Source: Mobula hypostoma
Taxonomy: Eukaryota
Assembly (NCBI RefSeq): GCF_963921235.1
Contig: NC_086107.1
Coordinates: 100,442,001 to 100,506,000, forward strand
Direction of reading: 5' to 3'
Length of the DNA stretch: 64,000 bases
The notes below the pieces were generated by a model that worked only from the letters and a program-made list of their open reading frames with translations, had not been told where the DNA came from and made no database searches. Below, piece by piece: positions 22,801 to 53,713 of the stretch. The position numbers were made by a program, and so were the translations under genes. Position 1 is the first letter of the stretch, and the number at the start of each line of letters is the position of its first letter.

Positions 22801-25800
22801 AAGAACACCAACATTCTGCTCTGCAGTAAAGATACCGTGACTAAATTCCATTCAATCACAATGCAACACAATTGGATTGGAAACACAAAACATGGCTTGA
22901 GTCGCAAGTTCTAAAGTATGCAGTTGAAATGGATGCCTTTTTTTAAAAAAAGTACATGGACAGAGGGAGATGAATGGTAGGTGCACTCCCATGTATGTGT
23001 AAATTGGAGGGTCAAGAGTTCTATAGTGAATCTGCTCACTCTTGGATAGCACTAAACAGGCTACCAGGATAGAATTTCCAGCAGAAAGAGCAGAAATGCA
23101 TGATACATTTTAGTAAAAAGATAAAGTCTCCTATTCAAGAATATGCACAAGTAGAAAAACCTAGTTTAAAATGTGTAATGACCTTTGAAGTTGGCATGTG
23201 TGGTTAGAGTGTGGTTAATAAAGCATATATGATTGCGCTCTTCATAAATATATGGATATAGTGAGCAAAGGCCAATCGATCATGCTAAGTCTTTATGAGA
23301 CATTGGTTGAGAGAGAATTGGAGTACTGTATCCATTTCCGCCATTAACTTTGGGAAGAATGTTACGATATTTCAGAAGGTGCAGAAAGAAAAGTTTTACT
23401 TGAACATCACACACACTAAGTGCTGGAGGAACTCAGCAAGTCAGATAGTATCTATGGATGGGAATAAATAGTTGATATTTCAGAAGGGTCTCAGCCAAAA
23501 TGTTGATTATATTTCCCTCCGTAGATGCTGCCTGACTTGCTGAGTTTCTCCCGAATTTTTAGTGAGTTCCTCAAGACTTCCAGCATTTGCAGAATCTCTT
23601 GTGTTAAAGATTTACTGGAACTGTTTGTGGGAAGAGGGATTTTAATCACCGGATTAGATAACGATAGAAGCTTAAACTTAACCTGCTTATCTCTAACCAT
23701 TTCCAATTCTAATGTAACATCATCAGCTTGAAATATTAACTTATTTTTTCTCATTTCAGAAATTGCCTGACCTATTGAGCATTTACAGTGCTATCTACAT
23801 CTAATTTTAGACACAGCACACACTTGATAGATCTGAGGTAGAACTACTTGCTTCTCTCTACCTACAGGAAGAATGGTTGGAAAATTGAAAGCAAAATAAA
23901 TAACCAAGCAAAAAAATAGACAGATTGGTCCAGAAACACTTCAAGGTTTAACATCCTGTGCATAAAGAGATTCTTGTCTGCACATTTCTGTTATAACCGG
24001 TGCTCATTTGAGCTACTGTAGACTTCCTGTCAGCTTGAACCTGTCTGGCCATTCTCTTCTGACCTCTCTCATTAGCAAGGTGTTTTTGCCTTCAGATCTG
24101 CTGCTCACTGGATGTTTCTTTTGTGTTTTGATTTCCTCTAGAAACTGCAGTGCATGAAAATGCCAAGAAATTACAGTTTCTGAGATATTCAAAACACTCC
24201 ATCTGGCACCAACAATCATTCCAGTCAGTCACTCAGATCAGATTTCTCCCCCATTCTGATATTTGGTCTGAACAACAACTAAACCTCTTGACCATGTCTG
24301 CATGCTCTGATGCACTTAGTTACTGTCATCCAATTGACTGATTAGATATTTGCATCAACGAAGCGTGCAGCTGTACCTAATAAAGTGGCCATTAAGTGTA
24401 TGGTCCAAGATTAAGCATTTGAGGGGTCTCAGCCCAAAATGTCAACTGTTTATTAATTTCCATAGAGGCTGCCTGACCTGCTGAGTTCCTCCAGCATTTT
24501 TTGTGTATTGCTAAGTACTTGTGCTTTTTATCATCTCAAAGGAAGATTAATTTACGTCCAGAGCTAATTAACTAAGGCAAATCTTGAGAAATATTATTAG
24601 TCCTAGTATGGAACACAGCATGGAAACAAGGCCTTTGGTCCAACTTATCCATGCCAACTAAGGAGTCTTCCTGAGAGAGTCCCATTTGCCTGCATTTGGC
24701 CTATTTCCCTCTAAACACGGGGTTCCCAACCTTTTTTTATGTCATGGACCAATACCATTAAGCAATCCCAGGATGGAGACATTTTCTATTCATCCAGGTA
24801 TCTCTCCAAATGTCTGTTAAACACTGTAATTGTACACTCCACCCCCTCCAGCACATAGTTTAGTGTTAGTGTCAACAGGTGATGATCAATGTAGACTGGG
24901 TGGGCTGCAGGGCCTGTTTTCCCTACTCTACAACCCCACAATACTAATATTTGAAGGTGTCAGGGCAAGTTGTAATGTCACATATTATTTTACAGATGCA
25001 ATGAGCTGAGAATAAATAACATTATTGTACGTGTTTCCATGGAAATCCAGCACAAGTGGAGCAAAAAACAAGTTGCTGAAGGAATAGCGGGCCAGACAGC
25101 ACCTGTGGAGGGAAATGGACAGTTAACACCTCTGGCCAAGACCTTGAAAGGCCAACCATTCTTCTCATAACTTCATTTTAGGAACTAGGAATTCTACAAT
25201 CTCAGAATCAGGCTGTTTGGTAAACTGTATATAAGGCTAAATACTAGAATGAGACCAGCAGTCAACAAATACCACAAGGGAAAGTTAAAAGCTTTGAAAA
25301 GAAAGCTCTGGCAGTGGGGGCTCAAGTTCTTCTGAATGCGCAGAACTTGACAGTCACAGAATGGGGGTAGAAGTGACAGAAAGAAGGCTTTAGAGCAACC
25401 ACTTTACAATACATGGGGTTGCACTGAAAATATTTTTTAGAATTTATGTTCTTTCCGAGGCTTCTCCTTACCTCCATAGCCCTTCTATAATCTCCAAGGT
25501 GGAATGCACAGTAACCCACCCACATGTCAATGTCGTCCTCCTTCTCGCCCACGTGTCGTTTGAACTAGGATAGACAAAAAACAGTTTCTCAGAGACCAAC
25601 TCAGCAGATTAATTTACCAGAAAATAAATAGAGTAGGACACATCTTTTGTATGTCTGTACATCAAGGTGAAGTTAAAAAAACACACTGGGACTGAAAGGG
25701 AAAGAGCAAATTCACAATCACTGGGAAAGTAGTACTGGGCAAATTATAAGGTTGATAAACTTATGATCCTGATGGACTTCATCCTAAGCCATTAAAGGAA

Positions 25801-28800
25801 CTGGGTGGTAAGACAGAAGACACATTGATTTTAATTTTCTAAATTTCCTTAAGTTTGGGGAAGGTTTCATTAATTTAGAAAGTAGCAAAAGAATTTTGTT
25901 TTAATCAGAAAGGGAAGGAGGTGAAAAGTAAGCAGCTGAAACACAGTTTATATAACATATGTCACAGGGCAAATGATAGAAGCTGTTATTAAAATTGCGA
26001 TAGTCTCAGAGAAATTCAATATAATCAAACAAAGATGATATGGTTTTATTGTGTTTCACCAGTTTATTGTCCTTTGACATTGAAGTGTGCTGTGGATGAA
26101 GGGAAAATACTGGATGGTGTGGCATCAAAGGTTACTGAAGAAAATAAAAGCTCAAGACGTAAGGGGTAACTTGCAGAAAGGGGAGTGGCATGAGCTGCTT
26201 TGCTCTTAGAGTTGACGCAGACTTGGTGGATCAGATGATGCACCTTAAATGATGCAAACCTTCTGTAATTCTGTGAAGCAAATCTACACGAGGTTATTAT
26301 GGACAAAGTGTAGTCCAATCCAGTTTCAGCGACGTCTGGCTGATGAAACAAGGAAACAACTAAATACTTTGTTAATCACTCTTTTTTGGTAAATGATCAT
26401 CGCAAGCAATAGCCTGTAACTTCCCTTTGGATTTGCTGGTAATTCGAAGTGGCAGGGCAGAGGTGAGGTGAGGCAGTGGGCCCATTGCCAAGAGCGAGGA
26501 AGACCCAAGGCTCGATCGATTTAAGTGCCGGGCTGAATTAGAAAGGTCAGGTACAGGCTGGATCGAGGCAGCGGGGTCCAGGACCCAGAACATATCAAAG
26601 CGACTGAACCTGATGTTTGGATGATGATTTAGTTGCCGGGTCAGATTGAAAAGGTCAGGGTGTTGGGGCCCAGTTCAAGTCACTGCTGCACTCTGCACTG
26701 AACTATGGGTCTGTGGACAGATTCTCTTAGTGGACTTCAATTCAGAATGACATTTTCTTGCATTTATCGTTTGCATATTTTTTTTTCTCTCTCTGCACAA
26801 TATGTGTTTGCTGGTCTTTCTTTAATGGATTCTTTTAGGTTTTGTTTCATGGCTTCCCGTTAGGAGACGAATCTCAAGGCTGTATAATGTATACATAATT
26901 AAATAATAAATGTACTTTGATATAATCCGTCAAGACTGTTCTGCCGTCCAGTAAGATTATGATTGATATATTTCTTAACTTTTATGTATCAGCTATGAGC
27001 AGGTTGGTGTCAGTGTTGCTCTGCGCCATGAAGATCCACACCATTAATTTGAGCAAAAAGGTCTTGGCTGATATTCTAGTGTATTGTTAAGGGAGTTGGG
27101 CAGTACAATGAGGCATTCGAAGGAACCTCATCTTCTCCCTCATGTAAATGTTGAAACAAAAAAAATCTTTGCAGTATTTTGAAGCAGCATCAGAATTATC
27201 TCCTGTTCCTCAGCCAACATTCACCCCTCAATCAAATTTACAAGAAGCAAATTATCCATTTGTCATTAAGTTGCTGTGTGTAGGGACTCTGCACAAGATA
27301 GCTGTTGCATTTCCTATATGGCACATCGCCTCTGTTACAAGTGATGTTCTGCATCATAATTATCTAAAAGTACACATAAGTGTGGTTACTTTTATAAACT
27401 ATTTCCATTCCTTACTGACAATCAGTGTGTTATGTACAACAAGTGTCTACAACAATAAAGGTCCATAATAAGACTCTGGAGAACGTGGAATTCTTCCCAT
27501 AGGACTTCCTCTCAATGCAGATGTCATGTATGAAACTCAGACTTGCCTTCCGTATGCCAGCACAGCAATTAAGGAAACACATGTTAAAAGTGGAGGTGCT
27601 CAAACCAAACACAGGACGAGAATGTTTCCTGCTCCATTGTATTATTCTGTCAAGTACAACCGACAGCAGGGACTTCAAAGTACTGGAGGGTTACCACTAT
27701 TTCTAGCGTCAGCATTTTGTCCCAGGCCAACACCCTCAATATTAAATCTGTAGTTATACCCAGTCTGCTCCAAGATGTAGATCACGTTGCTTGCATGCCC
27801 AATCTCGAAACAGAAATTGTCCTAGCATATAATTACCAGTTCATCAGAGGAAATATCTCACAACTTATTCCCCTGGCACAAGATTTCTCAAAATGTAGCA
27901 ATTCAGGGTGGCATTGAGAACCTTTGTTGGGCATGAACAGAGGGGTAGCATGGTAGTGTAGTGGTTAGCACAACCCTTTACAGTACAGGAGACCTGGGTT
28001 CAATTCCCGCTGCTGCCTGGAAGGACTTTGTACCTTCTCCCCATTACCGCGTGGGTTTCCTTCGAGTGCTCCAGTTTCCTTCCACAGTCCAAAGACATAC
28101 CAGTTGGTAGGACATTGTAAATTGTCCTGTGATTAGGCTTGGATAAAATTGGAAGATGGCTAAGCAGTATGGCTCGAAGTGCCTGCTCTACAATGTATCT
28201 CAATCAATTAATAAACGAACAAGTTCTAGGGTAGATAGTAGGAAACTACTATCTCTCAAGCTACCCAACTACCTAATTGTCAAGTACCTCCTGCTTCATC
28301 TGTGGTAAAAGTCTGTAGGTCCCACATTGGCCACACCAATCACCCGTGAACCTACAGAGTGGAATGGATGCCAATCATCCCTCATCCCAGAGCACTGCTA
28401 AAAACACAACGGATGTGCAAGAATCACCATTCGAGGGAATAAACAATTCACTATAGTGGAGGCAACATTATAAATATAACAAGATTTCCCAATTTCTTGT
28501 GGAAATTTTGTGAGCCTTTGTTAATTTTTATGTGAAGGAGAGGGTTGGGGGTTCGGGTTTGCGAGTTTTGTTTCTTTTTCTTTCTTGTGTGGTAGGATTG
28601 ATGTCTGTATTTTGTGGCTATCTGGAGAAGACAAATATCAGAATTATATTGTACGTGCATACTTTGAAAATAAAATGAACCCCTGAACTGCTGTAAAATT
28701 CCAATAATCCAGCATATTTAAGATTTTGTGGCAGATTTTCCAAACTATTGGATATTATTTCTTTTAGATATTACACAGCAATGGAACAAGTTTTCCAGTG

Positions 28801-31800
28801 AATTCAGGAAGTTTAAAAGGGAGCTTGGAAATGTGGTCCTGGTTAATTTGATGACAGCATAGGGAACTGGAAAATGGAGCACTGGTACATTTAAATGAAG
28901 CCCATTCAAGTAACAGGGTATTAATGTGTTTAAAGGGTGCATGGGTGATTGAAGGTTGTCAAAATATTATTTATACCATTGTCTGGTATGAACTAAATAG
29001 TCTTACAGATGACCTTGTTTCTAAACTACTGCTGTGGTTTTAGATTCAGGATGCTGCTTGATCTACTGAATTTGCGCTAGCGTGCAAGAACAACTTAGGA
29101 CAATCCTGCCTTCTCCCCATAGACCTGCAATTTTTTTTTTTTTGCTTTCAAGTACTTTACAGATCATGTTGGAACACTGATTGAATCTACCTGCACAACT
29201 CTCCTCAGCAGCGCATTTCAGATGTTAACCATTCACTGTACGAAAAGATTTATCCTTATGAATACTGTACTTTGATTACAGTTGCAAATCTAAACCATGG
29301 AGTGTCACACTACCATCCACATTTTATCTGAAAAGATGGACCAGAGTACCTGTATTCCAAAAGATGCAAAGCGAGGTGCTGTAAATGAGCAGAAAGAGTA
29401 AGGGGTTCCAATAGTGAAAAAACTAAAAGCTGAAGCATACAAACAAACATAACTTATCACTCTGATGGTACAGCAGCTTTTATCACAAGAAAGATTGAAA
29501 TAGGTAATTTAAGTTAATTAGCAGCTGTGCAGAACTCTGAATAGATTCAATTAAAAGCACTATTTTCTGTTCCAGCCACTAAAAGATACGAGGGGTGATT
29601 GATAAGTTTGTGGCCTAAGGTAGACGGAGTCAATTTTAGAAAACCTAGCACATTTACTTTTCAACATAGTCCCCTCCTACATGTACACACTTAGCCCAGC
29701 GGTCGTGGAGCATACGGATCCCTTCTTTGTAGAAGTGGTCCACAGCGGGGGTGATTGATAAGTTCATGGCCTAAGGTAGAAGCAGATGAGTTATTAACTT
29801 CAAACTTTCTGCATTTTCACTCAAAGAGTTGAACTACACATGCATGTAACGAGAGCGTCTTTGACCTCCAGGTGGTCTACAGCAGGGGTGATCGATAAGT
29901 TCGTGGCATAAGGTAGAAGGAGATGAGTTACACAGCTCTCGTTACATGCACGTGCAGTTCAACTCTTTGAGTGAAAGTGCAGAAAGTTTGAAGCGAACTT
30001 ATCAATCACCCCCGCTGTGGACCACTTTTGGAGGTCCAAAACACCGACTTCTACAAAGAAGGGATCCGTATGCTCCATGACCACTGGACTAAGTGTGTAA
30101 GTGTAGGAAAAATAAATGTGCTAGGTTTTCTAAAATTGATTCCTTCTACCTTAGGCCACGAACTTATCAATTGCCCCTCGTACTAATTCATGCCAATCAA
30201 GACACTGATCTCATTTGGCCCATATCCCACTTAAACTTTCCTTATCCATGTACCTGTCCAAACTAAATGAGTCTTGGTGTGGATGCCCTTCAGGTTATCA
30301 GAATGACCTATGAGGATTAAATGGTGAGTACAGACTGTATTGGCTTATATCCTCATGAATACAGAAGGTAAAGGAGTGATTATATTAAGGTATTGATAAT
30401 GTTCAAAGGTTTCAATTGAGAGGATGAAGAGAACTTCCTCTGATAGGAAATATAATCTTACAGAGAGAAGTAGGCCACTAAATGGAATTATTTTAAGTCC
30501 AATTGAAGAGGGCAGACTATGTCTCATTTTAATGCCTCATCCAAAGATTACAGCTCCAACAGAACAGGATGTCATTAATTCACTGAGGTGTACTTTTAGA
30601 CCATCTGAAATCTTGTGAGGAGGGCTTAACCCTCGAAATTTCAGACTTATTGATGACACCACAATTACTGAACCAAGACTTACACAGGTTAAGAAAGTAA
30701 AGAATCACACTTTTTTTGGCTTTTTACCCTTGAGCCTCAGCGATCATTGAAGTAGAAAACAACTGGATTGAAGCAGAAAACATCTTGATTTTACCTCCAG
30801 TAAAGTCAGGGCCCCAGAATAGTCTCTGATAGCAAGATATTCCTCAAGCTTTGGAATTTTTTTCCCTTTTTTCTTCTTTTTATCAACCTGCAACGTTTCT
30901 CCGCTGACAGCAGGTTTTGCTCGTGAGAGCATCTGGGAAAAAAAATAGGTAATCAATTTAGAGTATTCTTACACTCAATGTTAGCACACTAATATTCACT
31001 TGTAATCATTCCAGATCAATGCTATAATAGCAACCATCACATCAAAGACCCCACCACCCAGGTCATGCTCTCTTCTCCATGGCGCAGAGGCTATGAAGAC
31101 TGCCCCAGCTGCTGTGCTCTGTACCAGCCAATATGATGAACTGATAAGTGAGGCTTTGGGCCTACTCTGGGATTCAGATATAAGGACTCATTTCTGGTTT
31201 GAAACGCTGTTGTTCAATTGTTTGCATGACTTATATATTTTTTGTCTTTCTTTTACGAATCGGTGTCGGCCTTTTATTTTTTATTTTTATTCTCTTTTTC
31301 TTTAAATTAGATTTTTTGGGTTTCTTGCTTTCTGGCTATCTGTAAGCAAACACACCTCAATGTTGTATGATTTATACATTCTTTGATAATAAATGTACTT
31401 GAATCTCGAATCTTGCTGCTGCCATCAAGAAAGGACAGGAGCCTCAGGACTCCACCATGTTCAGGAACAGTTATTTCCCTCAACCACAGGCATCCCACCT
31501 CTCCTGGAAGTTCTGGGAGTCTCCCGCATATTAATAGTGGCTCCCTGATGCCCGCAAGTTATATACAATATCCCAGAAATCAATTTTTTTGAGAGAGAGA
31601 GAGAGAGCAAGAGAACACGCTAGAGAGAGCGAGTGCAAGAGTGACCACGAGAGAGAGACAGAGCGCGTGAGAGAGAGCGAGAGCGCGCTAGAGAGAGCAA
31701 GCGTGAAAGTGACCACGAGAGAGAGAGCGCGCCATGGGAGTGTGTTCCAAAAAAGAAAAATATAAAACGTACATCACCCCAGACTACACTAAAGTGTACC

Positions 31801-34800
31801 CCTGCCTAATAGGGGTCAAAATAATGACAGTGTTGCTCGCTGCACTGTTTGCAACAATGACTTTTCTATTGCCCATGGTGGGTTAAGACTGTAAAAGACA
31901 TGTTGAGGTGAGTTTAACAGGTGTCATTCATTCATTAGCATAGCTAATGTTATTTAAACTAGCTGGCTAGCTGCTAAGGAGCTACTCTATTGCAGACATC
32001 CCACCTCTCCCGGAAGTTCCGGGAGTCTCCCGCAAATTGATGGTGCTACCTCCCTGAAATGAGTTTTTGCAGGGTGGGATGTCTGCAACCATCAGGCTCT
32101 TGAACCAGAGGGGATAACTCACTCGCCCCATCACTGAACTGTTCCCACAACCTATGGTCTTCCAAGGACTCTTCATCTCATGTTCCCAATATTTACTACT
32201 TATTTATTTATACTTCTTTTTTTCTGTATTTGAACAGTTGGATGTCTTTTGCACACTGGTTATTTGTCCATCCTGCTGGATGCAGTCTTTCACTGATTAT
32301 GTTATGGTTCTCAGATTTACTGAGTATGCCCGCAAGAAAACAAATTTCAGTGTTACATATGGTGATATATATGAACTTTGATAATAAATTTACTTTTAAC
32401 TTTGAAATCCTAGCTACCAATGTTCATAGTTATACAGATAACATTCATAATTATACAGCTGAACTCTTTTAAGCAGACCAAGATGCTAATCTTATTCTGC
32501 CCGTATCAATCTAAACTTGCTGCATGTACCTGTTCAAATGCCTTTTAAACATACTTGCCTCCAATGGCGTGCGCACACACATGCGAGCACACACAACATC
32601 TTCTGTTTGACCCTGAAATCCCCTTTAAGTCTTTCCTTTTTCAATTTAAACTAATGCCCTCCAGTTTTAGATTCCCGTACTCCCGGAAAAAGGCTTTATC
32701 TTTATCAGCTTTATCTCTGCCCCTTGCGATTTTATAATGTGAATACTCAACCTCTATTACTCAAGGGAAAACATGTCCAACACACAAGAGGTTCTGCAGA
32801 TGCTGGAAATCTGCAGCAATACACACAAATGTGCTGGAGGAGCACAGCAGGTCAGGCAGCATCTATGGACGGGAATAAACAATTGATGCTTCGGGCCAAG
32901 ACTCTTCATCAGGACATTATATCCAATCCCTCCTTGCAGCTCAAGCCCTCCAGTCCAAGCAGCATTCTTGTGATTTTTTTCAGCACTCACTTCACCCACT
33001 TTCGCCTAATCACATCCTTTCTGTAGCAGAGTGACCAGAATTGCACACAATACCAAGTATGGCCTAACCAAGGACTTGTGCATCTATAACATCACATTGT
33101 AACTCATATAATCAATGCACAGTAACGTAGAACAAACATGTGTATATCATTACTATCACGGACTTTATCAGTAAGTGTGTTGAGAACCGTGTACTAAAGA
33201 GGCCAATTCGAGAGTTCCCAAACCAGAAACCATGGATAAAATGGGAGTTCCAGTCTCCTCTGAAGTTTAGGTCTACAGCATTCAAATCAGGTGACCTTGA
33301 CCTTTACAACAAATCAAGACATGCCTTGCGTAAAGCTATCAGAGATACTGTGGTGAGGCTAACATACTATAAGGGGTTACAAAGCGAAGTCAGGCACATC
33401 CCTTCCCAATGAGCTTAACACATTAGAACATAGAAAACCTACAGCACAATACAGGCCCTTCAGCCCACAAAGCTGTGCTAAACATGCCCTTACCTTAGAA
33501 ATTACCTAGGGTTACCCATAGCCTTCTATTTTTCTAAGCTCCATGTACCTATCCAGGAGTCTCTTAAAAGTTCCTATCGTATTCGCCTCCACCACCGTTG
33601 CTGGCATCCTTTTCCATGCACTCACTCCTCTGTGTAAAAAAACTTACCCCTGACATCTCCCCTGTACCTGCTTCCAAGCACCTTAAAACTATGTCCTCTC
33701 ATGTTAGCCATTTCAACCCTGAGAAAAAGCCTCTGACTATCCACACGATCGATGCCTGTCATCATCCTATACACCTCTATCAGGTCACCTCTCATCCTCC
33801 GTCGCTCCAAGGAGAAAAGGCCAAGTTCACTCAACCTATTCTCATAAGGCATGCTCCCCAATCCAGGCAACATCCTTGTAAATCTCCTCTGCACCCTTTC
33901 TATGGCTTCCACATCCCTCCTGTAGTGAGGCGACCAAAACTGAGCACAGTACTCCAAGTGGGGTCAGACCAGGGTCCTATATAGCTGCAACATTACCTCT
34001 CGACTCCTAAACTCAATCCCATGATTGATGAAGGCCAATGCACCGTATGCCATTCTATGTACATTTTGAACAGAAGGGAATGGGTACTTCGCCACTAATC
34101 CCCACAGTCTCCAGTGCACTTGAATCTGCAGTCATTGTGCCGCAGGCGAGTGTGTGGAAAGTATCAGCCTGGACAGTGTCCTTGGCTAGATCATCTTGCA
34201 GGTGTATTAGCAGACGTTTTTCACCTCTCCCTGCTTTAGGCTGAGGTTCCCTCCTGCTACAAGAAGACCACTATCATTCTGGTACTGAAGGAAAACAAGA
34301 TAATATGCATTGCTACCACCAGTGGCTCTGACATCTACCATCATGAAGTGCTTTGAGAGGCTGGTCATGGCACACATCAGCTCCAGACATCCAGACAACC
34401 CTCACCCACTGTAATTTGCCTACCGCCGAAACAAGTCTAGGGCAGGCACCATCTCCCTGTGCTTCACTCATCTCAGAAGCACCTGGACAGTAAAGAGAAC
34501 TATAACAGACTATTGCTTAGTGACTACTACTCTGCCTTCAATATTATTCTTCCAAGCAAACTCATCACCAAACTCAGGACCCTGGGATACCTTTTCAATA
34601 CCTTCCTCTGCAATGGGATCCTTGACTTCCTGACCAACAGACTGCAATCAGAAAGCATAGGCAGCAACACCTGCGCAATGATTATTCCAAATACTGGTGC
34701 TCCGCAAGGTTGCGTACTCAGCCCCCACTCTATTCCCTGTACACTCATAACAGTGTGGACAGATTCTGCTCTAAATCCATCTACAACTTTGCAGATGATA

Positions 34801-36880
34801 CTCCTGCAACATAGTCAAGTATGACTATGACTATTCTGGGCCCCATCTTAAATAACTAGGAGCTGGAGTACAGGAAGGAGATAGAGAGCTTATTAACAGT
34901 GCGTCATGACAATAACCATTCCTTCAAAGTCAGCAAATCATAACAGCTGGGCACTGACTTCAGAAAGAGGGACAGTGCACATGCTGTCTACATCAATGGT
35001 ATAGATGCTGAGAGCTTCAGGTTCCGAGACCAATAATCTGTCCTGGTCCATCCATGTTGATGTCACAGCCAAGAAAACTCAGCAGCTCCTTCTTCAAGAG
35101 GCTAAAGAAATGTGGCACGTCCCCGTCAATCCTTACAGATTGTTATCGACACACCATAGAAAGCATTCTATCTGGATGCACCACGTGCGGCAACCGCTCT
35201 GCACGTGACCACAAGAAACCGCAGGGAGCTGTGGACACAATTCAGCATATCACAGTTACCAGCCTCCCCCCCCCCCACCCCATGGATGCTGCCTACACTT
35301 CTCACTGCCTTAGTAAAAGCAGAATCAGAATCAGGTTTATTATCACCGGCATTAGATGTGAAATTTGTTAACTTCGCAGCAGCAGTTCATTGCAATACGT
35401 AATATAGAAGAGAAAACAAATAGAAATAATAGATAAGTCAATTACAGTGTACATATATTGAATAAATTAAAAAACATGCAAAAATCAGAAATAATGAATA
35501 TAAAAAAAGTGAGGTAATGTCCAAGGGTTCAAAGTCCATTTAGGAATCTGATAGCAGAGGGGAAGAAGCTGTTCCTGAATCGCTGAGTGTGTGCCTTCAG
35601 GCTTCTGTACCTGGGTGCTGGAGGACCTTAATAATGGATGCTGCCTTTCTGAGACACCACTCCCTGAAGATGTCCTGGGTACTTTGTAGGCTAGTACCCA
35701 AGATGGAGCTGACTAAATTTACAACCCTCTGCAGCTTCTTTCAGTCCTGTGCAGTAGCCTCTCCATACCAGACAGTGATGCAGCCTGTCAGAATGCTCTC
35801 CACGGTCCATCTATAGAAGTTTTTGAGTGTATTTATTGACATGCCAAATCTTTTCAAACTCCTAATGAAGTATAGCAGCTGTCTTGCTTTCTTTATGTTG
35901 GGACCAGGTTAGATCCTCAGAGATCTTGACACCCAGGAGCTTGAAACCAGCATAATCAAAGACCCCACCCGCCCTAGACATTCTCTCTTCTCCCCTCTGA
36001 ATTGATCAGCAGTGATAAATACGGAGTGAACCTGACATCCTAACCATATTGGGTACTAGTGAAACCTCACACATTTTATGCACACTTTTGGTGTCCTTCC
36101 ATAGAAATAAATGCTTTTCCAAACAAAAACTGCTCCAAAAGTGGTGCCTTTCGAGGATATATTGACAGATTAGATCTGTATTTTCCTAGTTTATTAAAGA
36201 TTTCATTGAAACTTCTATAATTTTATAGCGACCCATAGTCAGAATGCAAGGATAATATTGCACATGAATTTTTTTAAATTGCAGACACTGAAAATCTGAA
36301 TTAAAAACAGGAAATTCTGGAAAAACACAGCAAGTTGGGCAGTATCTGTCGAGAGAGTAACACTTCACCTATTACGTCAAAAATAAAAGGTCAAAGACCC
36401 ACCTGAGCTACTAACTGTTGCTATCCCAATGGTAGTTTAAAATTGAAATAAATCTTAATTTGGTAGCCTTTTGATAGCAAAAGGATTGTCAATCTTACCT
36501 GCCTGGGCTTTCCAGAGATAACCATCTAGATCCATAACTTTAAAATCGATTTTCAAGTTCCTTGGATATCCCACACTCCTTTTTATCCATCTTGGTCCCC
36601 TTCCTTGACTCTCTGACGACCAGACACACCTACACTTTCACTTCATTAAATCCCTCAGTTTTCCTCCCTCAGATCCTACTCTCTGACACCCCGATCCCAC
36701 CAGGACTCCAGGGAAACCCCTCACTCTATGTTCTCAGCACACCATGCTCAGTTGCCGCTTTGGCACGATGTCTTTGCGAAAAAATGAATGGAATTCGGCT
36801 GCTGGCGGTCCTTCTCCCGCAATGGGACTAACCGGCAGCTCTGCGAGGTTCCCTGCGTTCGGGTAGGCCCAACTCACCAT
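1777..36880 (-). CDS. ift56: IFT56/TTC26 (intraflagellar transport protein 56, TPR protein), spliced CDS, exons 1-11; 3' part lies outside the window
   Basis: Eleven exons (3+138+93+115+50+146+172+75+103+56+54 = 1005 nt) with GT-AG sites and compatible phases. They translate [12 protein letters not shown]...KIPKLEE...FKRHVGE...[12 protein letters not shown]...[28 protein letters not shown]...[18 protein letters not shown], which I recognise as the N-terminal 335 aa of TTC26/IFT56. Confidence 0.96.
2370..3535 (-). mobile_element. Rex1/Babar-type LINE 3' fragment, degenerate
   Basis: Peptides [28 protein letters not shown] and [26 protein letters not shown] short tandem tail (CAATT)n lies at 2370-2385. 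Confidence 0.75.
3790..4300 (+). mobile_element. Penelope-like element 3' end: GIY-YIG endonuclease remnant plus terminal repeat with hammerhead motif (4202-4237)
   Basis: Decayed CVRCS*CS...G.RF and [27 protein letters not shown], then a pyrimidine tract, then AGTCCTGATGAAGGGTCTCGGCCTGAAATGTCGACT. Confidence 0.8.
6145..6311 (+). mobile_element. Short CR1 3' end
   Basis: Near-identical to parts of 43950-44160, with an internal deletion, and ends in a TTATATGGTTATA tail. Confidence 0.7.
6982..7037 (-). CDS. ift56: IFT56 exon 10
   Basis: atcacag|ATGAT...CCTCAG|gtaagc; (D)[18 protein letters not shown]. Confidence 0.95.
7722..7958. mobile_element. Inverted pair of Penelope terminal repeats (about 95-bp arms)
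   Basis: 7722-7817 is the reverse complement of about 7826-7921. Each arm has a decayed hammerhead motif. Confidence 0.8.
8639..9322 (-). mobile_element. Tigger/pogo-family DNA transposon, internally deleted
   Basis: TIRs CAGGTTGAGTATCCCTTATCC / GGATAAGGGGTACTCAACCTG with TA on both sides. Contains a CENP-B-HTH-like peptide [21 protein letters not shown]...ADHEAAEKF. Confidence 0.85.
9597..9699 (-). CDS. ift56: IFT56 exon 9
   Basis: ctcttcag|GTGGTG...CGACAAG|gtaggt; [34 protein letters not shown]+1 nt. Confidence 0.96.
11324..11398 (-). CDS. ift56: IFT56 exon 8
   Basis: ctcaccag|GCAGAG...AACCTG|gtatgt; [25 protein letters not shown]. Confidence 0.95.
12410..12685 (+). mobile_element. CR1 3' end fragment
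   Basis: AGGACACAGCCTCAGATTAAAAGGATGTCCCTTTAGAACAGAGATGAGGAGGAATTTCTTTAGC, similar to 45940-46247. Confidence 0.65.
13399..13570 (-). CDS. ift56: IFT56 exon 7
   Basis: ttttactag|GGAATTC...GCTGAG|gtaacg; (R)[57 protein letters not shown]. Confidence 0.97.
15243..15882 (-). mobile_element. Unclassified non-coding retroposon of about 640 bp (copy A)
   Basis: Homologous to 44983-45597 and to 49104-54270. The 5' end is GGAGGAGAAGATGGCGG; the 3' end is AATAAA, a GAGGAC/GTCCTC hairpin and an ATCTA-type tail. Confidence 0.75.
17874..18019 (-). CDS. ift56: IFT56 exon 6
   Basis: ttcttccag|TTCAGT...AACCG|gtaact; [48 protein letters not shown]+2 nt. Confidence 0.96.
18252..18331. mobile_element. hAT MITE of about 80 bp
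   Basis: Degenerate CAGGGGTTCCCAA-type TIRs; same family as 41683, 48099 and 62852. Confidence 0.65.
18667..19217 (+). mobile_element. CR1 LINE 3' fragment
   Basis: [30 protein letters not shown]...[19 protein letters not shown], with a TTTCTATGGTTTCTA tail. Close to 38947-39302. Confidence 0.9.
20143..20192 (-). CDS. ift56: IFT56 exon 5
   Basis: tctttcag|CTCCA...CATAAG|gtaaac; (A)[16 protein letters not shown]. Confidence 0.95.
21350..21645 (-). mobile_element. tRNA-derived SINE with V-domain-like core
   Basis: Reverse strand has A/B-box-like head and GGTGCTCCAGTTTCTTCCCACAGTCCAAAGA. Confidence 0.65.
21890..22004 (-). CDS. ift56: IFT56 exon 4
   Basis: gcttaag|GAGTAT...ATGAAAG|gtgagt; [38 protein letters not shown]+1 nt. 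Confidence 0.95.
23410..23605. mobile_element. Degenerate inverted Penelope terminal repeats
   Basis: GCTGGAGGAACTCAGCAAGTCAG ... CTGACTTGCTGAGTTTCTCC, with a decayed AGGGTCTCAGCC motif. Confidence 0.6.
23975..24400 (-). mobile_element. Tc1-like transposon 5' remnant
   Basis: [15 protein letters not shown] resembles a Tc1 paired-like N-terminus. Terminal TACACTTAATGGCCACTTTATTAGGTAC on the minus strand. Confidence 0.6.
25472..25564 (-). CDS. ift56: IFT56 exon 3
   Basis: tcctag|TTCAAA...ATGGAG|gtaagg; [31 protein letters not shown]. Confidence 0.96.
27942..28215 (+). mobile_element. tRNA-derived SINE (V-domain type)
   Basis: A box TAGTGTAGTGG, B box GGTTCAATTCC, core GGGTTTCC...GTGCTCCAGTTTCCTTCCACAGTCCAAAGAC, A-rich tail. 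Relatives at about 42040-42260, 44215-44390 and 61500-61830. Confidence 0.8.
29589..30180. mobile_element. Mariner-derived non-autonomous fold-back element
   Basis: TA|CGAGGGGTGATTGATAAGTT ... AACTTATCAATTGCCCCTCG|TA. Both arms carry a mariner C-terminal peptide [17 protein letters not shown]. Confidence 0.85.
30795..30932 (-). CDS. ift56: IFT56 exon 2
   Basis: tttttttcccag|ATGCTC...CTGGAG|gtaaaa; [46 protein letters not shown]. Confidence 0.96.
31487..32085. mobile_element. Non-autonomous DNA transposon with internal (GA)-rich tract and a second internal copy of its left end at about 31993
   Basis: TIR CAGRCATCCCACC / GGTGGGATGTCTG; CAACCA is duplicated on both flanks. Confidence 0.7.
32780..32915 (-). 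mobile_element. Penelope terminal repeat with decayed hammerhead motif
   Basis: Minus strand GTCCTGATGAAGAGTCTTGGCCCGAAGCATCAAT...GATGCTGCCTGACCTGCTG. Confidence 0.65.
33130..36000 (+). mobile_element. Degenerate Rex1-type LINE carrying two nested insertions
   Basis: [33 protein letters not shown] and [12 protein letters not shown] motifs. Interrupted by a CR1 (33426-34050) and a minus-strand LINE end (about 35320-35945). Confidence 0.75.
33426..34050 (-). mobile_element. CR1 LINE 3' fragment
   Basis: [31 protein letters not shown]...[15 protein letters not shown]; tail AGAACATAGAA on the plus strand. Confidence 0.88.
36878..36880 (-). CDS. ift56: IFT56 coding exon 1 (start ATG only)
   Basis: Minus strand GCTCCGAAAAAATG|GTGAGT: A at -3, perfect donor, within a CpG-rich region. 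It supplies the first M of MMLSR. Confidence 0.85.
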
Positions 36881-36937
36881 TTTTTCGGAGCTATCGCCTG
36901 GGATCCCAGCAAAGAGAAGCTCAACGGCCTGGTCACA

Positions 36938-37750
36938 CCGTCATAGCAACGAAACCCCGCCCCTCAACCAGCCGTCCTGGCAACGAAACCCCGCCCCTCA
37001 ACCAGCCGTCCTGGCAACGAAACCCCGCCCCTCAACCAGCCGTCCTGGCAACGAAACCCCGCCCCTTCAATCCCTGCGCGAGCAACGAAACCCCGCCCTT
37101 CATTCTCTGCGCTAGCAACGAAACCCCGCCCCTTCAATCCCTGCGCTAGCAACGAAACCCCGCCCCTTCAATACCTGCGCTAGCAACGAAACCCCGCCCC
37201 TTCATTCTCTGCGCTAGCAACGAAACCCCGCCCCTTCAATCCCTGCGCTAGCAACGAAACCCCGCCCCTTCATTCTTTGCGCTAGCAACGAAACCCCGCC
37301 CCTTCAATCCCTGCGCTAGCAACGAAACCCCGCCCCTTCAATACCTGCACTAGCAACGAAACCCCGCCCCTTCATTCTCTGCGCTAGCAACGAAACCCCG
37401 CCCCTTCAATCCCTGCGCTAGCAACGAAACCCCGCCCCTTCATTCTCTGCGCTGGCAACGAAACCCCGCCCCTTCAATCCCTGCGCTAGCAACGAAACCC
37501 CGCCCCTTCATTCTCTGCGCTAGCAACGAAACCCCGCCCTTCATTCTCGGCATAGCAACGAAACCCCGCCCCTTCATTCTCTGCGCTAGCAACGAAACCC
37601 CGCCCTTCATTCTCGGCATAGCAACGAAACCCCGCCCCTTCATTCCTTGCCAGCAACGAAACCCCGCCTCCCTTTCCTCCGACCTCCGACCTCCGACTTC
37701 CGTCTGGCAACGAAACCCCGCCTCCCCGTTCTCCCTCCTGGCAACGAAGC
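36938..37750. promoter_or_regulatory. IFT56 promoter minisatellite: about 22 tandem 34-bp units plus 2 degenerate units, each with a GC box and an X-box-like half-site
   Basis: The core GCAACGAAACCCCGCC recurs from 36946 to 37653, mostly at 34-bp spacing, with degenerate copies at 37707 and 37741. On the minus strand each unit reads GGGGCGGGG-TTTC-GTTGCYA. The array begins about 60 bp upstream of the ATG and retains its CpGs. Confidence 0.8.
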
Positions 37751-38590
37751 ATCGCTTCTCCAGCCTTTGCGCTAAGGAAATCCCTAATTCCACATCAGCT
37801 ATTGCGAGAAAGTTCCACCAGTTCCACTTAACATCTTAACTTATTTTTCTCCACAGACGCACAACAGTATTTACAGCATTTTCCTTTCTTTTGTAAACAT
37901 TCAGTTTTTTTTTTTGCTTTTCGATAGTGCAGTTTTAAATATCTTAACCAAAAAAGCTACTTAATATATATCCTGTGTTGATGCGTCTGCCTAGTATGTG
38001 CTGAAGCCTGAGGAGAGGGGCCTTCACCCGTAACAAAGCAGCGCATAATCAAAGAACTGCAGATGTTGGAAATATGATAGGAAAAGACTCGGCAGGTTAG
38101 TTACAGGAAAGAGAAACAAAGTTAATGTTCCAGATTGAAAACCTTTGTCATAAGAATGTCTGCTTACACAATGTACAGTAGTTATAATATATATTTATTG
38201 AAAAGAGGTAATGCCAGCTCCCCCACAACTTTCTTGGGGGTAAGACCAAAAGAATAAGTATGGGCAAGTATTGGATTTTCAGAAAACCTTAGGCAAGGCA
38301 CCACACATAAGGTTGAAACTAAAGCATGAAGAATTTGCAGTAATAAACTGATCTCCCTCCACCACTTACTCAAGGCAGAGCATTCCACATTCTGGCTGCA
38401 ACATTTTTCTTCAGATCCCCTCCGAAGCTCTTCTGCTTTCCCTAAACTTCTCCTCTCAACTTTGAGAAAAGTTTCCTGCTATCTACCATATCAGTACCTC
38501 TCGTCATTTTATAAAGCTCCTTCACGTCATCACTAGGCCTCTTCTATTCCAAGGAAAATGTGACCACAAAGCATCTTCTCTCTCATCATA

Positions 38591-40540
38591 CAGTGGAGCT
38601 AGAACGTTTGTGAACCCGACAGAATTTTGTCTCTTTCTGTCTAAATACCACCTAAAATATGATCAAATCTTCACACAAGTCCTAAATCTAGATAAAGAGA
38701 ACCTAATTAAATAAATAACATGAAACATTGTACTTGTTTGTTTATTTATTGAGGAAAATTATCTAATATTACACATATTTGTTGGAAACAGTATGTGAAC
38801 CTCTGCTTTTAGTCACTGGTATGACCCCTTTGTACAGCAATAACTTCAATCAAACATTTCCAGTAACCGTTGATCAGTCCTGCACATCAGCTTGGAGGAA
38901 TTTTAGGCCATTCCTCCTTACAAAACTGTTTCAACTCATGGATGTTTTATAAAATTATGATGGGTACCCAGAGAGTGAATGCAAGCAGGCTTTTTCCACT
39001 GAGGCTAGGGGAGAAAAAAACCAGAGGACATGGGTTAAGCGTGAAGGGGGAAAAGTTTAAAGGGAACATTGGGTGTCTTCTTCACACGGAGAGTGGTGGG
39101 AGTGTGGAATGAGCTGCCAGATGAAGTGGTAAATGCGGGCTCACTTTTAACATTTAAGAAAAACTTGGACAGGTACATGGATGAGAGGTGTATGGAGGGA
39201 TATGGTCCAGGTACATGTCAGTGGAACTAGGCAGAAAAATGGTTCGGCACAGCCAAGAAGGGCCAAAAGGCCTGTTTCTGTGCTGTAATGTTCTATGGTT
39301 CTATGTTGGTGAGCTTCCTTGCATGAACTGCCTGCTTTAAGTCCCTTCCACAGCATTTCTATAGGATTAAGGTCAAGACTTTGACTTGGTCATTCCAAAA
39401 CACAAATTTTCTTCTTTTTAAACCATTCTGTTATTGATTTACTCTTGGCTTTCAGATCATTGTCTTGATGCATTATCCAACTTCTCTTCAGCTTCAGGTG
39501 ATGGACTGCTACCCTGACATTCTCCTGTAAAATGTCTTGATACAATTTTGAATTCATTGTCCCTTCAACGATTACAAGCTGTCCAGGCCCTGAGGCAGCA
39601 AAGCAGCCCCGAACCATGATGCTCCTTCCACCATGTTCTACTATACTCCTTCCACCAACTTCCACTGTTGGGATGAGGTTTCAGTGTTGGTGTTCAGTGC
39701 CCTTTTTCCTCCAAACATAGCAATGTGCATTTCTGTCAACAATTTCAACTTTGGTCTCATCTGTCCACAGAACATTGTCCCAGAAGTGTTGTAGAACATC
39801 CAGGTGGTATTTTGCAAACTTGAGACATGCAGCAATGTTTTTATTTTTGGAGAGCAGTGGTTTCTTCTGTGGTGTCATTCCAAAAACACCATTCTTGTTC
39901 AGTGTTTTTCTTATAGTAAGTTCCAATGTGCTAGAGATTTCTGCAAGTCTTTTGCTATTACCCTTGGGTTCTTTTTCACCTCCTTCACTATTTCACACTG
40001 TGCTCTTGGTGTGACCTTTGCCTACTCCTAGGGAGAGTAGCAACAGTACTGAATTTCGTCCATCTGTAGACAATTTCTCTTACAGTGGACTGATGAACAC
40101 TCAGTTCTTTAGAAATACTTTTGTAGCCTTTTCCATCTTCATGCATCTCTACAATTCTTCTTCTAAGGTCCTCTGAAAGTTGTTTTGATCGAGGTGTAGT
40201 GCACATAAACAGATCATTCTTGAGAAGAGCAAGTAACCTGACTTTGTGTGTCTTTTTTGTAGGGCAGGGCACCTCTACAACCCACACCTCCAATCTCATC
40301 ATATTGATTGGAACACCTGACTGCAGATGTTCACATACTTCTTCCAAACAAATACATGTAATATTAGATCATTTTTCTCAATAAGTAAATGAAAAAGTAC
40401 AATGTTTTTGTGTTACTTGTTTAATTGGGTTCTCTCGATCTAGTTTTACATCTTACGTGAAGATCTGATCACATTTTAGGTCATATTTATGAAGAAATAG
40501 AGAAAATTCTAGAGGGTCCACAAACTTCCCAGTACCACTG
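38591..40540 (-). mobile_element. Full-length degenerate Tc1 element with long (about 215 bp) inverted repeats; transposase pseudogene
   Basis: TA|CAGTGG ... CCACTG|TA. Peptides PRSKQLSEDLRRRIV...GYKSISKEL, FWDNVLWTDETKVE, HGGRSIMVRGCF, QDND and WPSQSLDLNPIE are spread over several frames. Confidence 0.9.
38947..39302 (+). mobile_element. CR1 3' end inserted in the Tc1 transposase
   Basis: Homologous to 18858-19217; ATGTT is duplicated at the junctions. Confidence 0.85.
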
Positions 40541-48179: not shown

Positions 48180-49464
48180 ATCTAGATTATGATGATGACC
48201 CATGCATAGAACATAGAACAATACAGTACAGGAACAGGCCCTTCAGCCCGCAATGTTGTGCTGAACCAGCTAAAAATGCAAATCTGAAACACCCAAACAC
48301 TGATCCCACCTACCTATACATTGCCCATATCCCTCCATCTTCCTCACATTCACGTGCCTATCTAAAAGTCTCTTTAAAGCCTCTAATGTATTTGCCACGT
48401 GCCTATCTAAAAGTCTCTTTAAAGCCTCTAATGTATTTGCCTCTACCACCACACCAGGCAGCACATTCCAGGCATCCACCACCCTCAGAGTTAAAAACTT
48501 ACCCCTCACATCCCCTTTGAACCTACCCCCTCTCACCTTCAATGCATCCCCTAGGTATCAGACATTTCAACCCAGGGAAACGGATACTCCCTGTCTACTC
48601 TATCTATGCCTCTCATAATTTTATAAAGCTCTTTCAGATCTCCCCTCAGCCCCACTGCTCCAGAGAAAACAACCCAAGTTTGTCCAGCCACTCATGATTG
48701 CACCTGCCCTCTAAACCAGGCAGCATCCTGGCAAACCTCTTCTGCACCTTCTCCAGAGCCTCAACATCCTTCTTTTAGTGGGGTGACCAGAACTGTACAC
48801 AATACTCCAGATGTGGCCACACCAGAGTTTTATAAAGTGCAGCATAATCTCTTGACTTTCGAACTCAGTGCCTTGACTAATAAAAACAAGCATTCCATAA
48901 GCTTTCTTAGCCACCCTATAGACCTGTGTAGCAACTTTCAAGGAACTGTGAACTTGGATCCCAAGATCTCTTTGCTCAGCAACACTGTTAAGGATCTTGC
49001 CCTTAATAGTGTACTGTCTCCTTACGTTTGCTTTACCAAGGTGCACCAACTCATATTTATCTGGGTTAAATTCCACCTGCCATTTCTTTGCTCATATCTG
49101 CAAGGGGAGAGAAGGAGAAGATGGCGGGATACAGCACGTGCGGCTGCTCCAAAATGATATCGCATTTGTATGTAGGTACCGTGCACAATCCTGATTTGAT
49201 GGAGACAGATGTGAGAAGCACGGAGGAACATCTGGAGAAACTTCTGAAATGCCCGCTTCGCTGCCGCTGCTACTGTGCAATTAAGAATCTCCGGAGGGGA
49301 AGGCCCCAAATCCTTGGCTTTGCCTATTGCCTGTTGCTGGGGCCGGGGTCGAAGCCCTTGGCAGAGATGGTGCTCGGTGCTCAGTGTCGGAGGGCTGGTC
49401 GGACGCTCGAAGTTTTCGGACAGACTCAAGAGTCGGCTGTGGTCGGGTGCTTCCAGGATGCTGC

Positions 49465-52700: not shown

Positions 52701-53687
52701 GCTTTGGTCGAGGGTCACGGAAGCCAGGGTGGGGTCGCTGTCTTGGTCCGGCGTGGTGGGGTGCCCCGTGAGCACCCGTTGGTCGTAGGCGGTGGGAGGT
52801 GGCGCCGACCAAGATGGCCGCCCCCATGTCTCGCACGTGGTGGTGGTGTGCAGGAAAGATGGCGGCCCCCATGTCTCGCACGTGGTGGCAGTGTGCAGGG
52901 AAGATGGCGGCCCCCATGTCTCGCACGTGGCGCTGCTCGATCCCGCTCGCGGTTTGGACTTACAGACCTTGGCGAAGTGGCCCTTCTTTCCGCAGCTGGA
53001 GCAGGTAGCTTGTCGGGCCAGGCAGCGTTTCCGGGGGTGCTTCTCCAGTCCGCAGAAGTAGCACTTCGCGGACTCACGACTGGCTGCAGCCGAGGTCGAT
53101 TCGCCGGCAGGTTGCGGGGTCTGCGGCACCCACGAGGCCATCGGAGGATCGCGTGCCTAGAGAGCCTCGGAGTTATGCAGAGCGGCCTCCAACGTATCAG
53201 CCAGCTCCATCACCGAATTTAGGGTAAGAGTGGCTTTTTCCAGCAGCTGCTGGCGTACGTACACTGACCTGGTTCCCGTGACGAAGGCGTCTCTCACTAG
53301 GAGTTCGGCATGCTGCGCCACCGTCAGCTCCTGGCAATTGCAGGCCCGCACAAGTGTCTGTAGGGCCCGGAGAAACTCAGCACTCGATTCTCCGGACCGT
53401 TGTTGCCGTGTCGCTAAGCGATGCCGAGCATAGACGCTGTTTATCGGCCGCAGGTATTGACTTTTGAGTGCGTTCATCGCGCCGTTGTAGTTCGGCTGGT
53501 CTCTCATCAGCGAATAAACCCGTGGACTGACCCTGGAGAGTAGAACCCTGCGCTTCGCTACGGGGTCGGTCGCTTTAATCTCCTCTAGATACACTTCGAA
53601 GCAGGCCAGCCAGAGTTCGAAAGCGTTTCCAGCGTCAGGCATTTGCGGATGGAGGACTAATTTTTCTGGTCTCAGGACCCGTTCCAT
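49765..53687 (-). pseudogene. Gypsy gag-pol polyprotein with two in-frame TAG stops and one frameshift
   Basis: Gag from ATG 53687, TAG at 53159-53157, then the same frame continues to Zn knuckles CYFCGLEKHPRKRC and CSSCGKKGHFAKVC and protease LFDTGS. A -1 frame change occurs near 52300-52250, then TAG at 52101-52099. RT (IDLKSAYHQ, VPFGVTNG, YLDN), RNase H (ESDAS, EKEA, TDQ) and integrase (H-H-CQVC, VDFKGP, HSDRG, VEKEN) follow. Confidence 0.93.
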
Positions 53688-53713
53688 GTATTAAAATGTA
53701 CAGCGAATAAAAT

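Follow-up and report, generated by a model that had tools for sequence, protein, structure and literature searches.

A locus-specific GC-rich minisatellite with GC-box and RFX-type motifs adjoins the first exon of IFT56 in Mobula hypostoma

Introduction

The intraflagellar transport gene IFT56 of the ray Mobula hypostoma is preceded by a tandem array of short GC-rich units, and this locus raises the question of whether the array is the gene's own promoter element multiplied in place or a minisatellite that grew within a promoter without effect on it. We analysed a 64,000-nucleotide stretch of M. hypostoma DNA (NCBI RefSeq assembly GCF_963921235.1, contig NC_086107.1, positions 100,442,001 to 100,506,000 of the forward strand), which is referred to here as the window and provides all coordinates below. 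An earlier reading of its letters, here called the original prediction, had proposed that a ciliary-gene promoter module consisting of an X-box half-site and a GC box had been amplified about 22 times directly upstream of IFT56, and that the number of copies might act as a dial on expression of the gene. That regulatory interpretation is partly supported. With a probability that we put at roughly 0.55, the array is a locus-specific, GC-rich minisatellite that constitutes the CpG-island promoter of IFT56 and was built by reiterating a proximal element made up of a GC box and an RFX monomer site.

A 34-bp minisatellite of 23 units with an invariant 16-nt core

Tandem Repeats Finder delimited a tandem array at 36944-37668 with a period of 34 (21.6 copies, 85% matches), and the same interval also scores at a period of 68 (10.8 copies, 92%) and of 102 (7.2 copies, 89%). 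When the array was cut on the minus strand at the exact anchor GTTTCGTTGC, 23 core-bearing units were obtained, arranged head to tail through 36944-37724 with the core on the minus strand. Seventeen of these are 34 bp long, one is 33 bp, three are 32 bp and one is 54 bp and contains a (GGAGGTC)3 run, and the remaining, proximal unit (unit 23) passes into unique sequence. Head-to-tail repetition of a unit longer than 10 bp makes the array a minisatellite, and the roughly 22-fold 34-bp repeat of the original prediction is real, with a count of 23 units. The array and its parts are as follows.

36944..37724, minus strand: minisatellite of 23 units, each with the core GGCGGGGTTTCGTTGC (GC box, then RFX monomer site GTTGCY); identified by Tandem Repeats Finder, 20-mer matches and anchor cutting; unique in the genome
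36937..36963, minus strand: proximal unit (unit 23), with its core at 36963-36944; identified by unit cutting and consensus scans
36937-36950: relaxed X-box of the proximal unit, ACCGTCATAGCAAC on the plus strand and GTTGCTATGACGGT on the minus strand; identified by consensus scans
36964..37065, minus strand: three identical "type C" units with the spacer CAGGACGGCTGGTTGA, each of which fits the degenerate X-box as GCCGTCCTGGCAAC
37066..37506, minus strand: thirteen units in which two spacer types alternate (GCGCAGGGATTGAA and GCGCAGAGAATGAA), with slight variants
37507..37638, minus strand: four units alternating between 32 bp (spacer TATGCCGAGAATGA) and 34 bp
37639..37790, minus strand: distal decaying end, with two units that have GAGGCGGGG cores, then one or two decayed units (GCGATGCTTCGTTGCC)

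The 20-mer GGGGCGGGGTTTCGTTGCYA has 23 minus-strand matches at up to two mismatches (18 exact, three with one mismatch and two with two), all of them within 36944-37724, and 100 dinucleotide-preserving shuffles of the window gave no match at all. Variation in the 20-mer is confined to its two leading G's and its two final letters. The invariant core that had been proposed for every unit therefore holds for the 16-nt GGCGGGGTTTCGTTGC, which is fixed on the minus strand in 23 of 23 units, and fails for the two outer letters at each end. In the proximal copy the sequence reads GTTGCTATGACGG on the minus strand at 36950-36938, a distance of 57 bp from the ATG codon described below, in agreement with the approximately 60 bp predicted.

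The two spacer types that alternate through 37066..37506 give rise to the higher-order periods of 68 and 102 bp. At the other end of the array, beyond the last core-bearing unit, one or two decayed units without a GC box (GCTTCGTTGCC and GCGATGCTTCGTTGCC) lie at approximately 37725-37790. One of the two GAGGCGGGG units, the one that holds the (GGAGGTC)3 run, also contains an ETS-like CGGAAGT at approximately 37702. Separately, the stretch 37671-37724 may preserve part of an older promoter element that the array displaced. A comparison of the flank past the proximal core with the type C spacer found the same letter at eight of 16 positions, including GACGG, a likeness too weak to prove that the array was seeded from the proximal copy.

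The array has no counterpart elsewhere in the genome

We searched the complete 3.48-Gb assembly (200 contigs) for further copies of the unit. At up to one mismatch, all 21 genome-wide matches to the 20-mer lie inside the array and its reversed control has none, and a DNA query of 204 bp taken from the array returned six matches, again all inside it. The 15-mer sub-core GGGGTTTCGTTGCYA has 21 matches in the array and five elsewhere, and the three matches of its reversed control put the latter at chance level. Since the DNA search skips simple repeats, the pattern searches bear most of the weight here. The confinement of matches to this one place rules out a dispersed satellite or a transposon-borne repeat, as the unit has no matches at other loci above the control level. 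Dispersal over many unrelated loci, which the original prediction had named among the findings that would overturn it, was thus looked for and is not seen; the array is specific to its locus.

A DNA contig from a second organism (run X5, organism B, approximately 1-2% diverged here) is collinear with the window over 35972-36997, a stretch that takes in the two proximal units, and shows 10 letter differences and one gap. It ends five letters past 36997, inside the repeat. At least the start of the array is thus common to a close relative. The same contig bears on whether the array, or its copy number, is an artefact of assembly. The number of copies is known from the assembly alone, and the contig comparison reached 36997 and not the interior of the array. 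Against an artefact, the variant units are ordered in three distinct blocks rather than collapsed or stuttered, the array is short (0.8 kb) for an assembly that spans 3.48 Gb in 200 contigs, and the organism B contig independently covers the flank and two proximal units before it ends within the repeat. We consider an artefact highly improbable.

The array adjoins the first exon of IFT56

The gene downstream of the array is IFT56, as predicted, with its exons on the minus strand of the window. PDB chain 8bd7_E ("Intraflagellar transport protein 56") is matched by one exon with E = 2.2e-23, and its N-terminus by the exon at 30932-30795 (MLSRAKPAV...TLLE) with E = 0.011. The latter, exon 2, is 100% identical to the annotated IFT56 of both M. 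hypostoma and M. birostris. When the M. hypostoma protein was compared with the genome, 13 exon matches were found, all in a single minus-strand locus that includes the window, and IFT56 is a single-copy gene in this genome. At 25471-25564 and 21855-22028 the window reads MWVGYC and KEAEEAAMK, as does the M. hypostoma entry; M. birostris reads MWMGYC and KGAEEAAMK. The 5' part of the gene is laid out as follows.

36878..36929, minus strand: IFT56 exon 1, minimum extent; 5' untranslated region ending in the start codon ATG (36880-36878); based on sequence, RNA contig depth (position inferred) and orthologues that start with MM
36872..36877, minus strand: splice donor GTGAGT of intron 1; based on sequence
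30933..36877, minus strand: intron 1, 5,945 bp, mostly interspersed repeats
30795..30932, minus strand: IFT56 exon 2 (MLSRAKPAV...TLLE), preceded by the acceptor ttttttcccag
25471..25564, minus strand: IFT56 exon 3, joined to exon 2 in contigs of three of three RNA-type runs

The first large coding exon, exon 2, lies about 6 kb from the array and not 60 bp from it. It opens with ATG CTC straight after a polypyrimidine-AG acceptor. Among nine IFT56 proteins compared, six start with MMLSR, including those of both Mobula species, and the other three with MLSR. Taken together, the MMLSR proteins and the ATG CTC at the start of exon 2 place the first methionine in an upstream exon that ends in ATG. 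Such an exon end, AAAATG|GTGAGT, is present at 36880-36872; on the minus strand it follows the proximal unit at a distance of 57 bp. Ray and shark annotations of IFT56 with an initial MM fit this model. Exon 1 apparently supplies the start codon only and exon 2 opens with a second ATG, so that the protein may start with MM or M; in Scyliorhinus torazame both forms of IFT56 are annotated, at 554 and 553 amino acids.

Three runs of RNA type were compared over 25300-36997: X15 and X16 from organism A and X18 from organism B. Their labelling as RNA is a guess, and contigs in which exon 3 is spliced to exon 2 show that they do have RNA content. These contigs join 25471-25564 to 30795-30932/3 and carry extra letters at their 5' ends, eight in X15, 52 in X16 and 30 in X18. 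The mean depth in the bin 36610-36997 is 2.95 for X16 and 1.24 for X18, values equal to 22 x 52/388 and 16 x 30/388, that is, to contig depth times leftover letters divided by bin width; from this we infer that exon 1 lies within that bin. If the GTGAGT donor is used, the X16 contig would end at 36929, 15 nt below the proximal core. The extra 5' letters of the three contigs are too short to reach the two proximal units, and nothing about the start of transcription is read from them.

Exon 1 most likely ends as ATG|GTGAGT, with the codon at 36880-36878, and is followed by an intron of 5.9 kb before exon 2. The exon model, the RNA contigs and the MM-starting orthologues support the earlier claim that the array lies directly upstream of IFT56, and here it adjoins the first exon. 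On the far side of the array no divergent partner gene was seen, the region from 38 to 64 kb of the window containing open reading frames of transposons only.

The array makes up nearly the whole of a CpG island

The array and the start of IFT56 share one feature of unusual composition.

36600..37750, no strand: CpG island; observed/expected CpG 1.28 over the array and 0.65 on the exon-1 side

As had been predicted, CpGs are preserved throughout the array, with 73 in 813 bp at a GC content of 0.611 and an observed/expected ratio of 1.28. The ratio falls to 0.65-0.67 in the immediate flanks and to 0.20-0.32 a few hundred bases out, and it is 0.38 for the whole window. CpG islands are defined by a length above 200 bp, a GC content above 0.5 and an observed/expected ratio above 0.6, and the array exceeds all three, with the first exon adjacent. 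Both CpGs of the core are intact in all 23 units. Their retention suggests that the array may be unmethylated in the germline. The GC skew over the array is about -0.5 on the plus strand.

No Rfam family was detected in 36000-38500 at E up to 1, six units folded as single-stranded DNA show no gain in stability over shuffles (z = +1.16), and no canonical G-quadruplex with loops up to 12 nt occurs on either strand, the only forms present having one loop of up to 21 nt. A coding reading of the array was rejected: its 34-bp period is not a multiple of three and its open frames are repeat artefacts.

Variation among units avoids the core

To compare the units with one another we used the 21 that could be aligned (units 2-22) and treated changes as independent while ignoring the genealogy of the units, a simplification that overstates independence in all P values that follow. 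The 21 units comprise 12 distinct sequences and require at least 22 minimal changes. The first 18 columns account for only two of the 22 changes (binomial P = 2e-5), and the 20 columns that the original prediction had defined beforehand account for five (P = 6e-4). Variable columns number 16 of 34, and an invariant run of 16 contiguous columns arose in 0 of 200,000 permutations. Between the two most divergent unit types there are 10 differences over 34 positions, and the 16-nt spacer holds every one of them (P = 6e-5). The strongest sign of constraint is this frozen core set against a freely varying spacer; substitutions that avoid the core, together with the intact core CpGs, suggest that the core has been constrained.

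The same comparison shows how the array may have grown. Blocks of identical or alternating units indicate several separate and recent local amplifications, and the distal edge is older or unconstrained. These traces are also what would be expected of a neutral by-product, in which slippage or unequal exchange produced a minisatellite within an already unmethylated CpG-island promoter, the proximal copy or some other sequence does the work and the other units are passengers without effect. In favor of such an origin, the blocks of identical units and the higher-order periods speak for recent mechanical amplification, the distal units are decaying, no unit contains a full X-box, and a GC skew of about -0.5 is typical of unstable GC-rich minisatellites. 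[quoted passage not shown] Neutral growth sits less easily with a contiguous 16-nt core that variation spares even where two unit types disagree at 10 of their 16 spacer positions, with the survival of both core CpGs in 23 of 23 units and with the presence of at least the proximal units in a second organism. We give the neutral explanation appreciable weight, well short of even odds.

Each unit carries a GC box and an RFX monomer site

Returning to the reading of the array as an IFT56 promoter built from a repeated element, we scanned the units for the motifs that the original prediction had named. The GC box is present as stated: GGGGCGGGG is exact in 18 units and the core GGGCGG occurs in 21 of 23, a perfect match to the Sp/KLF-type consensus, which makes these putative Sp/KLF sites. 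GTTGCT or GTTGCC, both of which fit the RFX monomer site GTTRCY, is found in all 23 units, and the array as a whole contains 24 occurrences of RGYAAC/GTTRCY. In the unit layout the RFX monomer site begins 4 nt after the GC box, with a TTTC linker between the GC box and GTTGC.

RFX can bind a single copy of GTTRCY as a monomer (bioRxiv 10.1101/2022.11.11.515474), and two lines of published genetic evidence connect IFT56 orthologues with RFX control. First, the fly orthologue CG4525 is down 223.6-fold in dRfx mutants (PMC2375033). Second, the worm orthologue dyf-13 is under control of DAF-19 (PMC2375033; PMC1794439). [quoted passage not shown]

The array offers such relaxed sites only at its proximal end. 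X-box consensus forms were taken from PMC2375033 and bioRxiv 10.1101/2022.11.11.515474, and the degenerate form RYYNYY N1-3 RRNRAC is matched only by the four TSS-proximal units, once as ACCGTCATAGCAAC and three times as GCCGTCCTGGCAAC. The proximal RFX-type site lies 57 bp from the ATG and, by the inferred position of the RNA contigs, at most about 20 bp upstream of their furthest letter. No better X-box was found elsewhere near the 5' end of the gene within the window, so that if IFT56 is RFX-controlled in rays as in other animals, the units would be the only candidate RFX sites in the window. Simple motif scans of 36860-37860 detected no TATA, CCAAT, NRF1, YY1 or FOX motif; motifs for other factors were limited to one ETS-like site at 37702 and one MYB-like site at 36922.

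It is conceivable that the likeness to RFX sites is coincidental and that the core is read by some other factor, for instance a zinc-finger protein that takes GGCGGGGTTTCGTTGC as one long site, or that the array forms a boundary or protects against methylation. The block without variation runs unbroken over 16-17 nt and includes the TTTC linker, a continuity needless for two independent short sites; only half of an X-box is present; and MYB, NFI and YY2 motifs partly overlap the X-box in RFX chromatin immunoprecipitation (ChIP) peaks (PMC7498320). On the other hand, GTTRCY is the exact RFX monomer site and occurs in every one of the 23 units, the IFT56 orthologues of fly and worm are RFX targets, and beyond the single ETS-like and MYB-like sites the simple scans yielded no alternative known motif. 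A non-RFX reading appears quite unlikely to us.

Observations that weigh against the promoter reading

Several observations count against the view that the array is an IFT56 promoter assembled from repeated GC-box and RFX elements. Many neighbouring units are identical, and part of the invariance of the core reflects recent amplification. The distal units have lost the GC box, so that constraint does not extend over the whole array. The GC box (GGGGCGGGG/GGGCGG) is presumed to be an Sp/KLF site by its consensus and not by a matrix scan. Exon 1 is placed by contig depth, and a weaker donor, CCG|GTTAGT near 36830, is a less likely alternative. The strict X-box (RTNRCC N1-3 RGYAAC or GTNRCC N0-3 RGYAAC) occurs in 0 of 23 units, with no match to the strict forms across the whole 64-kb window, and the restricted form (GYTRYY N1-3 RRHRAC) likewise occurs in 0 of 23 units. 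The degenerate RYYNYY form that the four proximal units do match is common, with 91 matches in the 64-kb window and 38 for its RYYRYY variant, and the degenerate consensus is not predictive on its own (PMC2375033). Finally, we found no vertebrate literature that ties TTC26/IFT56 to RFX, the literature found being on Drosophila only, with supplements of ChIP studies outside the search.

For the X-box claim of the original prediction this means that the RFX monomer half stands in all units, and that a strict or restricted X-box is absent and the loosest form is confined to four units next to the TSS. The more general claim that IFT genes are RFX targets holds for the IFT56 orthologues of fly and worm, and no vertebrate counterpart for TTC26 was found in the literature searched. 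Failure of the X-box test lowers the standing of an X-box array and leaves that of half-sites which RFX may use.

A proposed origin by reiteration of a proximal element

Most likely, a proximal promoter element consisting of a GC box and an RFX monomer site 4 nt further on was duplicated in tandem. The array would then have grown by several local rounds of unequal exchange or slippage, traces of which may be preserved in the three identical proximal units, the two- to three-unit period of the center, the alternating distal block and the decayed distal edge. Multiplied Sp/KLF sites would keep approximately 0.8 kb upstream of the TSS CpG-rich and open, and the array would at the same time offer many weak RFX half-sites. 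The four TSS-proximal units alone carry a relaxed X-box with two halves that could provide an RFX input linked to cilia.

The existence of the array, its uniqueness, its place beside exon 1 and the sparing of its core by variation are observed; the binding of these factors, promoter function beyond the proximal unit and expression that depends on copy number would be further parts of the model. The last of the three, the "copy-number dial" within the model, we regard as doubtful. A bolder version would have the IFT56 promoter of mobulid rays rebuilt by an approximately 23-fold amplification of an RFX/Sp module, with a selectively maintained homotypic array that is the whole CpG island and a copy number that tunes IFT56 dosage and, through it, cilia assembly within or between species. 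This too seems to us rather improbable, and comparable in its chances to the dial.

Comparison with other promoter repeats and RFX targets

VNTRs with factor sites are known from several promoters, among them those of the reduced folate carrier gene (a 61-bp repeat with Sp1/AP2 sites), EGFR (a TCC repeat that binds Sp1), XRCC5 (an Sp1 VNTR) and TPMT, and MNS16A with GATA1 sites (PMC3899988; PMC8096271; PMC5438627). Like these, the IFT56 array is a tandem repeat in a promoter or CpG island with a factor site in each unit, and because every unit has its site, copy number sets the number of sites in both. Promoter VNTRs that alter expression by their length are an established class, into which the IFT56 array would fit judging by its letters. 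What sets the listed promoter VNTRs apart is that polymorphism and an effect on expression are documented for them. The IFT56 array differs from those listed in its larger number of units (23), its extent over nearly the whole CpG island, its combination of a GC box with an RFX monomer site and its association with a ciliary gene.

Control of IFT genes through X-boxes and RFX proteins (DAF-19, dRFX, RFX1-3; PMC2375033, PMC1794439) involves the same family member, IFT56, and an RFX-type sequence within approximately 70 bp of the ATG and near the TSS region, as seen here. Canonical RFX targets have a single palindromic X-box, whereas the IFT56 array reiterates a monomer half-site (23 of 23 units) with a relaxed form in four of 23. 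The nearest parallel to the proximal units is HEATR2 (PMC4168999), which likewise has one well-matched and one degenerate half and more than one site near the TSS, with a proposed role in fine-tuning. HEATR2, however, has a well-matched palindromic site and RFX3 ChIP support, whereas the IFT56 array has no palindromic site and is known from its sequence. Among the literature matches listed there was no report of a minisatellite composed of RFX sites.

The array also resembles repeats of quite another kind in its unit size, strand asymmetry, higher-order structure and end decay. The classical GC-rich hypervariable minisatellites of vertebrates have units of tens of bp, an asymmetry of G and C between strands, higher-order variant units and one decayed end, and they are mostly subtelomeric or intergenic and have no assigned promoter role. 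By adjoining exon 1 of a gene that is conserved and single-copy, the IFT56 array differs from them.

Should the units be functional, the array would be a natural case of a multiplied core regulatory module of a ciliary gene, and it would provide a built-in allelic series for relating the number of weak RFX/Sp sites to promoter output and CpG-island maintenance. Should they not be, it would be another promoter-proximal minisatellite, useful in practice mainly to supply a polymorphic marker and to urge care in annotating the promoters of elasmobranch genomes. Until function is shown, the array need not surprise a specialist.

Other features of the window

Introns 1 and 2 of IFT56 are rich in repeats of another sort. 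Over 27640-36219, bins reach summed contig depths of thousands to a million in runs of two organisms, RNA-type runs included, which marks high-copy interspersed repeats, and small parts of the stretch spanning introns 1-2 are common to several other organisms.

Beyond the array, Tc1/mariner-type transposase frames broken into three pieces lie on the minus strand at 39390-40368, and a perfect 45-bp tandem duplication (2.0 copies, 100% matches) lies in transposon-like sequence at 48351-48441. A long terminal repeat (LTR) retrotransposon occupies the minus strand at 49765-53690, with a pol-like frame of 777 amino acids (reverse transcriptase, RNase H and integrase) and gag-like frames. Inside a gag-like frame, at 52811-52930, a 45-bp tandem repeat of 2.7 copies encodes the repeated peptide HVRDMGAAIFPAH.

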